Part shown: positions 22,519-23,930 of the stretch, one piece after another
How the letters are laid out: every line of letters begins with the position of its first letter
Numbering within the stretch: the first letter of the stretch is position 1
From: a virus
Taxonomy: Duplodnaviria; Heunggongvirae; Uroviricota; Caudoviricetes
IMG/VR virus record: IMGVR_UViG_2724679236_000008
Strand: one strand, 5' to 3'
Length of the DNA: 64,000 bases
Translations under genes and position numbers: made by a program
Notes under the pieces: generated by a model
Seen by the model: only the letters and a program-made list of their open reading frames with translations
Database searches by the model: none
Told to the model about the DNA's origin: nothing

Positions 22519-22594
22519 TGGTGGCCCCTACCGGACTTGAACCGGTGACCGTGCAATTATGAGTCGCCAGCTCTAACCACTGAGCTAAAGGGCC
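22519..22594 (-). tRNA. tRNA with CAU anticodon (Ile2 lysidine-type or Met)
   Basis: Hand fold: acceptor GGCCCTT/AGGGGCC, D-arm GCTC-AGTGGTTA-GAGC, anticodon loop CTCATAA, T-arm ACCGG-TTCAAGT-CCGGT, discriminator A, CCA encoded; resembles E. coli ileX. Confidence 0.85.
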
Positions 22595-22597
22595 GGA

Positions 22598-22705
22598 TTA
22601 CTGTTTCCTGAGTGCTTCTATGACGCCAGCAATACCGCCTACAACTATGCCAGCAATGACAACGAGAACAATTGGATGCTTGTCAGCAAAATCCCAGAAG
22701 CCCAT
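22598..22705 (-). CDS. 35-aa hydrophobic peptide (MGFWDFADKHPIVLVVIAGIVVGGIAGVIEALRKQ)
   Basis: Start overlaps stop of upstream 54-aa ORF (TGATG); single TM helix; below track cutoff. Confidence 0.4.
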   Translation of the reverse strand: MGFWDFADKHPIVLVVIAGIVVGGIAGVIEALRKQ

Positions 22706-22869
22706 CACTGTTCCTTCGAGGCTGTATTAAATATCGGCCATACCAATGTTACAGCTACTGCTACCAACGCCCCGTCGGATAAAATCGACAGGATTGTGCT
22801 GGTGAAATCCACCAGCACAGATAGCACGAGAAAGACAAAAGCTAGAATTAAACGTGCTTTTATAACCAT
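22705..22869 (-). CDS. 54-aa hydrophobic membrane peptide
   Basis: MVIKARLILAFVFLVLSVLVDFTSTILSILSDGALVAVAVTLVWPIFNTASKEQ; start overlaps stop of TerB-like gene (TGATG). Confidence 0.4.
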   Translation of the reverse strand: MVIKARLILAFVFLVLSVLVDFTSTILSILSDGALVAVAVTLVWPIFNTASKEQ

Positions 22870-23294
22870 CAGATATACTGTTCCAGTGGCAATTGAAGAG
22901 CCTGGGCAATTTTCTTCAATTGCTCCTGTTCTTCAGCCCCAATGCCATCCTGGTCGGCAATATCAATACATAGGCACAGAACATCTACCGCATCATTAGT
23001 CCCGGCCACATCAGCCAGCTCACGTAAAGCCTGGGCATTAGCTCGGCGCGGCGAGGCTTCATATTGAGCGCGAATATTGGCGCTCATCTGGGCAATTTCA
23101 CCGGAGAACGGCGCAAAGGCAGGAAGCGCTGCAATGGTTTTTTCCAATACTGCAATTTCTTTCGCATCGCAGGTGCCGTCAGAGTATGCAATGGAATATG
23201 CGCCCCAGACGGTCGCTTCCACCGCATCACGGTTTTCCATCTTCTTGACTCCGCCAGCCGCTTTGCGGAATTTCTTTTTGAGAATGCCGAGCAT
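22869..23294 (-). CDS. TerB-like tellurite-resistance-family protein (P1 TciA-like), 141 aa
   Basis: TerB-type helical protein; acidic C-terminus; coupled to two downstream micro-ORFs. Confidence 0.6.
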   Translation of the reverse strand: MLGILKKKFRKAAGGVKKMENRDAVEATVWGAYSIAYSDGTCDAKEIAVLEKTIAALPAFAPFSGEIAQMSANIRAQYEASPRRANAQALRELADVAGTNDAVDVLCLCIDIADQDGIGAEEQEQLKKIAQALQLPLEQYI

Positions 23295-23555
23295 TTATTA
23301 ACCTCATTACTGGTTGGGAAATAAGGTTGCGGTGCCGGGTGCCTCCCGGTGTCCTTTGGCTGGTTATCCACCGTGGACGGGGAAAAGGAGAAATTAATGG
23401 ACTGATATAACCATTTCCCCGCGTGCGCTTAGCCGCATTCACCGCAATGGTAAGAGCACTTGGCTGGCTGGGCGGCGATGACGCCTGTACGCATTTGGTG
23501 ATCCGGTTCTGCTTCCGGCATTCGCTTAATTAGCCAAATACTCTTAACGTTGCGC

Positions 23556-23642
23556 TGGTGGAGAGTAATGGAATCGAACCATCATCGCTTGCGCAATGGG
23601 ACGGTTTTCAAGACCGTTTGAGCACCATGCTCCCTACTCTCC
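23556..23642 (-). tRNA. class II tRNA (long variable arm), anticodon UGA (Ser by anticodon)
   Basis: Hand fold: acceptor GGAGAGT/ACTCTCC, anticodon arm ACGGT-CTTGAAA-ACCGT, 17-nt variable arm, T-arm GATGG-TTCGATT-CCATT, CCA encoded; identity not confirmed. Confidence 0.65.
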
Positions 23643-23873
23643 GGCCGTTGTGGTGACCGGTACTGAATCTCCGGCATACGGTGCAGCCAATTAGGACTAC
23701 GGACGATCACCGCTCGCGAAAGGGAAGATTTGCGGCCGCATTTCCCTAACATCCAAGAAAGCTATCGCATCAGTCTGCGAATCCACCACAACGGAAAGAG
23801 CATTTATGGCTCGCATCGCGGGAAAAAGCCCACGGTAGAGAGTCGAACTCTACAAATACTCTTACCTGTTGTG

Positions 23874-23930
23874 CTGGTGCCGGTTAACGGATTCGAACCG
23901 CTGAGCTACACCATCACTTGCCGGGTACGT
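23874..23930 (-). other. tRNA-like 3' fragment (T-arm plus acceptor plus CCA) without a foldable 5' half
   Basis: ...GTAGCTCAGCGGTTCGAATCCGTTAACCGGCACCA; no complementary 5' acceptor strand or anticodon arm found; second T-arm-like hairpin nearby at 23835-23860. Confidence 0.3.

Follow-up and report, generated by a model that had tools for sequence, protein, structure and literature searches.

The subject of this study is a stretch of 64,000 nucleotides (nt) of viral DNA (IMG/VR record IMGVR_UViG_2724679236_000008; the whole stretch is referred to here as the window) and, within it, a cluster of tRNA genes and tRNA-like elements at positions 22519-23930. The window represents a P1-like phage-plasmid. 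Over positions 23300-24150 the sequence matches pEA4_97, a plasmid from Escherichia albertii BIA_4, at 100% identity; this plasmid is a non-mobilizable IncY replicon of 97 kilobases (kb) with a finished, circular record. The wider region, across ban, trnI, tciCBA and dmt, shares ~95% identity with P1, JL22, SJ46 and P7. All of the features under study are encoded on the minus strand, with the tRNA region bracketed by dmt (24589-26853) and ban (20867-22237). The operator function assigned to Oban, at the start of the operon carrying the tRNAs, follows from the P1 and P7 GenBank annotation; both records describe Op(ban) as controlling ban, and only the P7 record adds the trn RNAs. Taken as a whole, the region very probably corresponds to that part of the C1-repressed ban operon which encodes small RNAs in a P1-family phage-plasmid. 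Its principal features are listed below.

22519-22594, minus strand: tRNA-Ile2, anticodon CAU, ileX/trnI type, CCA encoded (ARAGORN; Rfam tRNA model, 61.4 bits, E=7e-11)
23441-23555, minus strand: stem-closed RNA cassette ('module 1') directly 3' of tRNA-Ser, with a 13-base-pair (bp) closing stem formed by 23534-23546 and 23451-23463
23556-23642, minus strand: non-canonical class II tRNA-Ser(UGA), 87 nt, CCA encoded, A73 (ARAGORN; Rfam tRNA-Sec model, 43.1 bits)
23785-23874, minus strand: four-way-junction RNA of ~90 nt ('module 2'), starting right after the CCA of the chimera (RNAalifold, pair counts)
23835-23853, minus strand: P2, the T-arm-like hairpin of the four-way-junction RNA, GTAGAG-TTCGACT-CTCTAC
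23875-23915, minus strand: 41-nt chimera of tRNA-Asn nt 1-20 and the last 21 nt of a 133-nt 'tRNA-OTHER' gene (alignments; sister-plasmid comparison)
23896-23904, minus strand: 9-nt repeat TCAGCGGTT, the deletion junction (comparison with pEA36_1)
24571-24598, minus strand: bivalent C1 operator Oban overlapping promoter Pban, base-for-base the P1/P7 operator sequence

The tRNA calls were checked with ARAGORN and Rfam, without tRNAscan-SE. ARAGORN calls exactly two tRNAs in the 64 kb, and both lie where an initial annotation of the DNA had placed a CAU-anticodon tRNA and a class II UGA-anticodon tRNA; at Rfam gathering thresholds, the CAU tRNA is the sole match inside 22519-23930. The initial annotation had also named tRNA-Asn, tRNA-Thr and tRNA-Ile as the P1 set, and the P1 operon does carry all three, the last as trnI. 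Neither ARAGORN nor Rfam finds a complete P1-type tRNA-Asn or tRNA-Thr cloverleaf at the present locus, as the initial annotation had reported, and only nt 1-20 of the Asn gene are left. It had been proposed that the element either has a different tRNA complement or contains degenerate or unconventional members. Both halves of this alternative hold: trnI has been kept, tRNA-Ser(UGA) is present and the genes at the Asn and Thr positions have been lost, and the class II tRNA is odd in shape yet belongs to a conserved family, with the tRNA-like fragment being a degenerate deletion scar. The original observation is confirmed, therefore, and its interpretation supported. What had been missed was the Asn/'tRNA-OTHER' chimera, the existing annotation of the tRNA-Ser elsewhere, and the separate conserved RNA fold to which the T-arm-like hairpin belongs. 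None of these elements is attributable to chance, since each has close homologues, and compensatory changes in the tRNA-Ser and the four-way-junction RNA exceed those of 500 out of 500 shuffles. The cluster is an ordinary, previously sequenced variant of a known P1-family system and, as one more variant of the variable P1-family tRNA cassette, matters little as such; anything potentially new is confined to the structured but unannotated RNAs among the tRNA genes.

Two tRNA genes in the ban operon

The CAU anticodon is presented in a full cloverleaf according to both ARAGORN and Rfam. The gene is identical to P1 trnI at 75 of 76 bases, the single change (C40U) turning the G30-C40 pair into G30-U40, and it shares with P1 trnI its position between tciC and ban. 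The nearest chromosomal relatives, which are 88% identical and annotated as tRNA-Ile, are present in 5426/5426 complete E. coli genomes, and a note in the P1 record describes trnI as 89% identical to ileX. Direct reading of the sequence revealed acceptor pairs C4-G69 and C5-G68, both of which are TilS determinants. The CAU tRNA is, on these grounds, an ileX-type tRNA-Ile2, predicted to read AUA after lysidine formation. ARAGORN labels it Met, which is the usual ambiguity, given that lysidine is invisible in DNA.

The class II tRNA is matched in Rfam only by the selenocysteine tRNA (tRNA-Sec) model, with an E value of 1e-6 and 43.1 bits, short of that model's gathering score (47); the general tRNA model of Rfam is silent. 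The gene is present in P7, D6 and many phage-plasmids, and absent from P1, JL22 and SJ46. The window copy is 97.7% identical to that of P7, 96.6% to that of D6 and 88% to trnS of phage rV5, and the segment 23419-23793 as a whole is 98.7% identical to D6. Treatment of the gene in these records varies, being unannotated in P7, described in D6 as having an 'apparent UGA Serine anticodon but AA not called by tRNAscan-SE', and listed in rV5 as trnS, 'discovered using ARAGON'. More distant homologues occur in KPC53, Pseudomonas phage Pyxpy02, Klebsiella phages Sugarland and AM_K4, phage Eos, Streptomyces phage HaugeAnator and Brevundimonas phage Domovoi. The gene itself is not new, as it is already annotated by RefSeq as tRNA-Ser on plasmids of 330/5426 E. 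coli genomes; it is also present in 337 PLSDB plasmids. Standard models overlook or mislabel this phage tRNA-Ser, with its selenocysteine-like D arm, so that counts of phage tRNAs depend upon the tool employed.

The secondary structure of the tRNA-Ser family was examined by pair counts on an alignment of 13 homologues, with 500 shuffles and slid registers as controls. When the D arm is drawn as compact, pairing in the cloverleaf reaches 97.6%, with double changes at 15 of its 26 pairs; none of the 500 shuffles equalled this, and the slid controls reached 36-61%. Compensatory changes extend to all five helices. The compact D stem, which has a 4-bp core, is 98.1% paired with three of four pairs covarying, whereas the D arm drawn by ARAGORN (a 3-bp stem with a 9-nt loop, in a 7/5 fold) is 82.1% paired in its stem and was rejected. 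In rV5, Sugarland, AM_K4, Eos and HaugeAnator, the stem is extended by a fifth pair and capped with a tetraloop (AUGG, GUGG or ACGG); the D arm of the window copy has 5 bp and a UGG loop, the loop being one base shorter than that of rV5. Minimum-free-energy folds of single tRNAs were uninformative. The variable arm comprises a 6-bp stem (CAUUGC/GCGAUG) with a GCAA loop, and the anticodon loop reads CUUGAAA. Direct reading established that the window copy lacks U8 and a normal D loop; its T loop and CCA end are intact. An A8-U76 pair can form in 12/13 homologues, and G60, immediately before the T stem, can pair with a C of the variable arm in 13/13, so that an architecture of an 8-bp acceptor and a 4-bp T stem is possible.

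The window copy differs from its relatives at two further positions. G27A, which converts a G-U pair to A-U, and G73A occur together in only 2/337 plasmid copies, namely pEA4_97 and its sister plasmid pEA36_1. The 11 other homologues examined carry G73, with the exception of AM_K4, which has U73. For one allo-tRNA variant, Mukai et al. (2017) ascribe the insertion of serine to its G73 (PMC5389517). Given this link and the presence of A73, the tRNA-Ser of pEA4_97 may be less well charged with serine.

The deletion scar and the lost 133-nt gene

The initial annotation described a third element with a canonical T arm, acceptor 3' strand and CCA, and no 5' half. Such an element is indeed present at 23875-23915, and it has no complete 5' half; its first 20 nt, however, are the 5' end of tRNA-Asn. 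The remainder (23875-23895), which supplies the T arm, the acceptor 3' strand and the terminal ACCA, is all that the window retains of the 133-nt gene. Alignment with P1, SJ46, D6 and P7 revealed the 5' end of tRNA-Asn joined straight to the 3' end of the next gene, and base-by-base comparison with pEA36_1 (99.9% identical), which has the intact arrangement of Asn and tRNA-OTHER genes, revealed that the window departs from that arrangement solely by the absence of exactly 170 nt, with one copy of TCAGCGGTT kept. This repeat is located in the D loop of tRNA-Asn and again in the variable/T-stem region of the tRNA-OTHER gene. Among 72,556 plasmids, the 170-nt deletion is unique to the pEA4_97 record. 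The 5' end of the chimera, GAUGGUG, is unable to pair with the 3' acceptor strand AACCGGC, its fold is no better than that of shuffled sequences (z = -0.15), it scores 11.7 bits as a truncated tRNA, and ARAGORN does not report it. The fragment is a non-functional deletion scar, for which replication slippage is the simplest explanation. A split or permuted tRNA was considered as a reading of the fragment and dropped, since a plain deletion is evident from the sister plasmid. Loss of two genes together with the G73A change suggests that the cassette of pEA4_97 is under relaxed selection.

The 133-nt gene, labelled tRNA-OTHER by RefSeq, is distinct from P1 tRNA-Thr. It has nt 1-27 and 46-76 in common with tRNA-Thr, and the anticodon arm is replaced by an insert of ~87 nt that is better conserved than the tRNA body. 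Full-length copies are found in 11 plasmids and in phage Jgk1; those in the comparison loci are located as follows.

L007, 2076-2208, minus strand: copy of the 133-nt gene
L017, 1501-1633: copy of the 133-nt gene
L016, 1501-1633: copy of the 133-nt gene
L018, ~1497-1630: copy of the 133-nt gene

Compensatory changes are present in its acceptor and T stems, and RNAalifold supports the acceptor, D and T arms only. An intron-containing tRNA was rejected as an explanation: ARAGORN with introns allowed is silent, no anticodon-type loop could be discerned by eye, and the Rfam score is 13.5 bits. A further irregular tRNA-like gene is seen in the arrays of rV5-like phages, where ARAGORN places a 99-nt 'tRNA-???', its anticodon having four bases (atcc), between tRNA-Ser and tRNA-Thr (L010, 490-588; L006, 1385-1483).

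Structured RNAs among the tRNA genes

The second T-arm-like hairpin noted in the initial annotation is present at 23835-23853, but its description as a tRNA-like 3' fragment did not survive, the hairpin belonging instead to a separate, conserved four-way-junction RNA. Homologues of 23785-23874 with 81% identity are found in lambdoid Enterobacter phages and in an SSU5-like phage-plasmid, and a pattern scan located the RNA in 69 viral contigs, representing 30 distinct sequences. RNAalifold applied to 22 distinct sequences returned a perfect four-way junction, comprising a closing stem (P1 stem) of ~16 bp with two internal loops, the 6-bp hairpin P2 with the loop UUCGACU, a 6-bp hairpin of variable sequence (P3), and a 3-bp hairpin (P4) with a CGAG-containing 5-nt loop (CGAGC). 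The invariance of the T loop carries no weight here, as it was fixed by the search pattern. Across the same 22 sequences the fold is 99.3% paired, with 13/31 pairs doubly changed, including 5/6 in the variable hairpin P3; none of 500 shuffles equalled this, and slid controls were 39-61% paired. The window copy scores 110 bits against a covariance model built from the family. In one lineage the outer stem has been swapped for another complementary pair. Rfam, by comparison, offers no match to the RNA, bacterial Y RNA-like YrlA (RF02553) included, at E<=10, even in a focused scan of 156 nt, and focused low-threshold scans of the two RNA cassettes and the scar returned noise only (11-14 bits). 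It is concluded that the structure of the four-way-junction RNA is under selection and that the RNA is not the remnant of a tRNA.

Wherever tRNA genes lie near the motif they share its strand, and the motif follows tRNA-Thr at a distance of 1 nt or tRNA-Arg(tct) at 98 nt, or else precedes tRNA-Ser by ~145 nt. Some 30 loci are devoid of tRNA genes out to 1.5 kb, and in a P22-like prophage the RNA occupies the non-coding gap between the antiterminator and holin genes. It is present in 74/5426 E. coli genomes, at a median of one copy per genome, and is never annotated as an RNA. A scan of one genome per species returned two enterobacterial matches and three that are likely due to chance, and literature searches on the four-way-junction motif found nothing relevant. 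The best guess is that it is a processed, stable RNA resembling the tRNA elbow, excised via its long closing stem.

Module 1, directly downstream of the tRNA-Ser, appears to be a related cassette. The 82% identity that the tRNA-Ser region shares with rV5/phita32 runs ~90 nt past the gene, and the ~70-nt interior of module 1 is common to rV5-like phages. Direct reading of the rV5 sequence, in which the MAFFT alignment had mis-registered the stem, revealed a closing stem formed by a different yet complementary pair. The covariance model of the four-way-junction RNA gives a weak score on module 1 (16.7 bits), and there is no Rfam match. A 30-codon open reading frame (23429-23521) overlaps the module; it is not conserved, given that the rV5 copy lacks a start codon and carries an indel. 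The same covariance model identifies weaker copies, by the closing stem only, at 23441-23555 itself and at the following sites.

24118-24202, minus strand of the window: weak closing-stem copy (GCAYAACAGGNAAG...CUUUCCNGUU) with an unrelated interior
2942-3023, 3436-3525 and 3881-3964 of the P1 locus (L001): three weak closing-stem copies, likewise with unrelated interiors

One of the P1 copies overlaps the annotated plp gene, on the opposite strand. The leader of the ban operon in P1-family phages thus looks like a string of stem-closed cassettes. Breakpoints between P1-like, D6-like and window-specific segments of the mosaic fall in the closing-stem halves, which suggests that the stem halves act as patches of homology for the exchange of modules. 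The locus illustrates how such a cassette may change, with modules being exchanged where stem sequences recur, and deletions arising from short repeats within tRNA genes. In SSU5-like phage-plasmids the tRNA-Ser is followed by another long hairpin, with a stem of ~20 bp (CACAGCGTTGAGCGGTTTGG...CCAGACCGCTCAACGCTGTG), at 1588-1670 of locus L011 and just past tRNA-Ser in loci L017 and L024; its 5' strand resembles that of the module 1 closing stem. Alignment of the sequence after tRNA-Ser across the SSU5-like loci failed, a different hairpin being present there.

These observations lead to a proposal that is regarded as quite possible, though short of probable: that the ~90-nt junction with a T-loop arm represents an undescribed family of phage RNA, its parts arranged like those of a tRNA opened at the anticodon (as in YrlA), which is co-transcribed with phage tRNAs in P1- and SSU5-like phage-plasmids and, in lambdoid prophages, is located in the late leader between Q and the holin gene. 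Combined with the 133-nt gene and the cassette that follows tRNA-Ser, it would form a set of non-decoding tRNA-like RNAs in enterobacterial phage arrays, with the stem halves as recombination joints. Were this so, such RNAs could provide substrates for processing, draw off tRNA-binding enzymes as decoys, or have a stabilising role, and the shared halves of the closing stems would serve to shuffle tRNA modules. Conserved, covarying folds between phage tRNA genes at present carry no database name; if expressed as stable RNAs, they would be new players in phage-host conflicts over translation or RNA processing.

Operon setting, alternatives and relation to known systems

Additional features of the operon and of the window are listed below.

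22598-23294, minus strand: tciA-tciB-tciC, between the two tRNA genes (open reading frames; P1 annotation of the 95%-identical region)
23328-23446, minus strand: STnc100-like structured leader upstream of tciA (Rfam RF02076, 36.4 bits, E=1e-5, gathering score 47)
24389-24408, minus strand: strong terminator-like hairpin with a T run, within the stretch named 'dicF-like' in the P1 record
22512-22518, 23534-23540 and 23854-23860, minus strand: U-rich UAUUUG motif
44653-44738, minus strand: C4 antisense RNA (Rfam, gathering level)
44806-44858, minus strand: a1/b1 target sites of C4 (Rfam, gathering level)
40409-40582, minus strand: sok antitoxin RNA (Rfam, gathering level)

The tciABC genes are described as 'tellurite or colicin resistance' in the P1 record. 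The leader upstream of tciA is a sub-threshold match closed by a UGCGGUG/CACCGCA stem; STnc100 is a prophage small RNA family, and a preprint on STnc100/Pas deals with other prophage small RNAs. The UAUUUG motif is situated 0-14 nt past the CCA of both tRNAs and of the scar, reading UAUUUGG after the tRNAs and UAUUUGU after the scar, and could be a candidate RNase E-type processing site; two of its three copies double as the 5' strand of a cassette closing stem. C4 and its target sites belong to the P1 immunity region.

On the P1/P7 annotation, the lifting of C1 repression would allow a transcript from Pban to proceed down the minus strand via the cassettes, tRNA-Ser, tciABC and trnI as far as ban. 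The tRNAs, each with its own encoded CCA, would be expected to be released by RNase P, RNase E and exonucleases of the host, and C34 of trnI to be converted by host TilS to lysidine, permitting AUA to be read. Seryl-tRNA synthetase (SerRS) could feasibly recognise the tRNA-Ser via its long variable arm and its G1-C72/G2-C71/A3-U70 end, and the charged tRNA-Ser(UGA) would read UCA-family codons. The simplest benefit would be a supply of tRNAs for AUA and UCA codons during lytic growth. In 55 open reading frames of the window, AUA occurs at 11.6, UCA at 14.1 (the commonest serine codon here) and ACA at 16.2 per 1000 codons, compared with ~4-5, ~7-8 and ~7-8, respectively, in E. coli K-12. The codon-supply reading rests on AUA and UCA being about twice as frequent in these genes as in E. 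coli.

Several observations weigh against this picture. The codon data amount to a correlation only, set against approximate host reference values. The terminator-like hairpin lies between Pban and the tRNAs, such that read-through must be assumed, and a simple promoter scan of 22200-24750 found no promoter-like site; the scan also missed the annotated Pban within that range, and so says nothing on internal promoters. Loss of tRNA-Asn and its neighbour implies that plasmid maintenance, if nothing else, does not require the cassette. With regard to the tRNA-Ser, A73 departs from the G73 or U73 of every relative examined, and the G60-U76 pair of a rival 7/5 fold is likewise possible in 12/13 homologues; positions 8, 60 and 76 are invariant and provide no covariation signal.

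Alternative explanations for the individual elements differ in how much they can account for. That the class II UGA tRNA is simply a decayed pseudogene would be consistent with the silence of the general Rfam model, the sub-threshold tRNA-Sec match, the uncalled amino acid in D6 and the detection of rV5 trnS by ARAGORN only, as well as with A73 in place of G73 and the missing U8 and normal D loop in the window copy. It is nevertheless very unlikely: the family has been kept in unrelated phage groups, 337 plasmids and (as annotated tRNA-Ser) 330 E. coli genomes, its pairing (97.6%, 0/500 shuffles) is compensated in all five helices, and the CUUGAAA loop, T loop and CCA are intact, while the 8/4 and 9/3 tRNAs tested by Mukai et al. 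were active in E. coli translation (PMC5389517). A narrower version, in which the family is functional and only the G73A copy is impaired or mischarged, with the whole pEA4_97 cassette decaying, is somewhat unlikely. The joint occurrence of A73 and A27 in just two of 337 copies, the G73 or U73 of other relatives, the tie between G73 and serine insertion in one allo-tRNA variant (PMC5389517) and destruction of the neighbouring Asn and tRNA-OTHER genes in the same plasmid all point in this direction; G27A, on the other hand, improves a G-U pair to A-U, and every helix of the tRNA-Ser is intact. Furthermore, it is chiefly by the long variable arm and the acceptor pairs that E. coli SerRS recognises its tRNAs. 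As for the 41-nt fragment, a functional half-tRNA, split tRNA or minihelix is scarcely conceivable despite the perfect T arm, 3' acceptor strand and CCA, in view of the ends that cannot pair, the unremarkable z score (-0.15), the 11.7-bit match, and the sister plasmid, which identifies the fragment as the remainder of a deletion found once among 72,556 plasmids. That single occurrence, between short repeats in repetitive tRNA-like sequence, could alternatively reflect an artefact in the assembly of pEA4_97. This is highly improbable for a finished, circular plasmid with flanks identical to those of pEA36_1 and a clean 9-nt repeat junction of the kind typical of replication slippage.

The T-arm-like hairpin and its surroundings might similarly be regarded as a decayed tRNA gene or a repeat resembling a miniature inverted-repeat transposable element, rather than a selected structure. 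The loop UUCGACU closed by G-C conforms to the T-loop consensus, the element sits in tRNA arrays, and its closing-stem halves recur around other interiors in the same operon, much as terminal inverted repeats would. This explanation is quite unlikely given the double compensatory changes at 13/31 pairs (5/6 in the variable hairpin), the lack of any score with tRNA models, the common strand of the motif and all nearby tRNAs, the median of one copy per genome, and the replacement of the outer stem by another complementary pair in one lineage. At the level of function, the phage tRNAs could chiefly give protection from tRNA-cleaving nucleases of the host or of competitors (anticodon nucleases and tRNase colicins, for instance), as replacements or decoys, instead of supplying codons. 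The tRNAs adjoin tciABC, with its annotated link to colicin resistance, and non-decoding tRNA-like RNAs (the tRNA-OTHER gene, the four-way-junction RNA) could act as decoys; moreover, the tRNAs of phage T5 are documented as evading tRNA-targeting defences. Since the codon bias fits supply, and relatives differ freely in their tRNA sets, which can be lost, this too is judged unlikely, and codon supply is retained as the simplest benefit.

With respect to known systems, the cluster is most directly compared with the tRNA-Asn/tRNA-Thr pair downstream of Pban in P1. The locus is the same, nt 1-20 of the scar correspond to the start of the P1-family tRNA-Asn gene, and the flanking sequence is colinear with P1; unlike in P1, both genes have been destroyed, and in the parent lineage the Thr position had already been taken by the 133-nt tRNA-OTHER gene. 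The tRNA-Ser resembles the (8/4) tRNA-Ser/allo-tRNA class, which Mukai et al. (2017) found in bacteriophages as near-misses of the tRNA-Sec model (PMC5389517). The likeness is one of traits: the D arm is Sec-like, the variable arm long and the anticodon one for serine, with a sub-threshold tRNA-Sec match and a possible 8/4 branch. Conversely, the window copy has A73 in place of G73 or U73, and A27 in place of G27.

The four-way-junction RNA follows the YrlA consensus (RF02553) in the order of its helices, a long closing stem being followed by a T-arm-like hairpin, then by another hairpin and lastly by a small third one. It differs from YrlA in giving no match to the model and having no sequence similarity, and in a third hairpin of only 3 bp with a 5-nt loop. 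An rsr/Ro gene is not among the annotated neighbours at the loci examined (tRNA genes, tciA, dmt, antiterminator and holin), although no search aimed at rsr/Ro was made. The tRNA cluster of phage T4 includes two stable RNAs, C and D, and the four-way-junction RNA is like these in being a non-tRNA RNA among phage tRNA genes.

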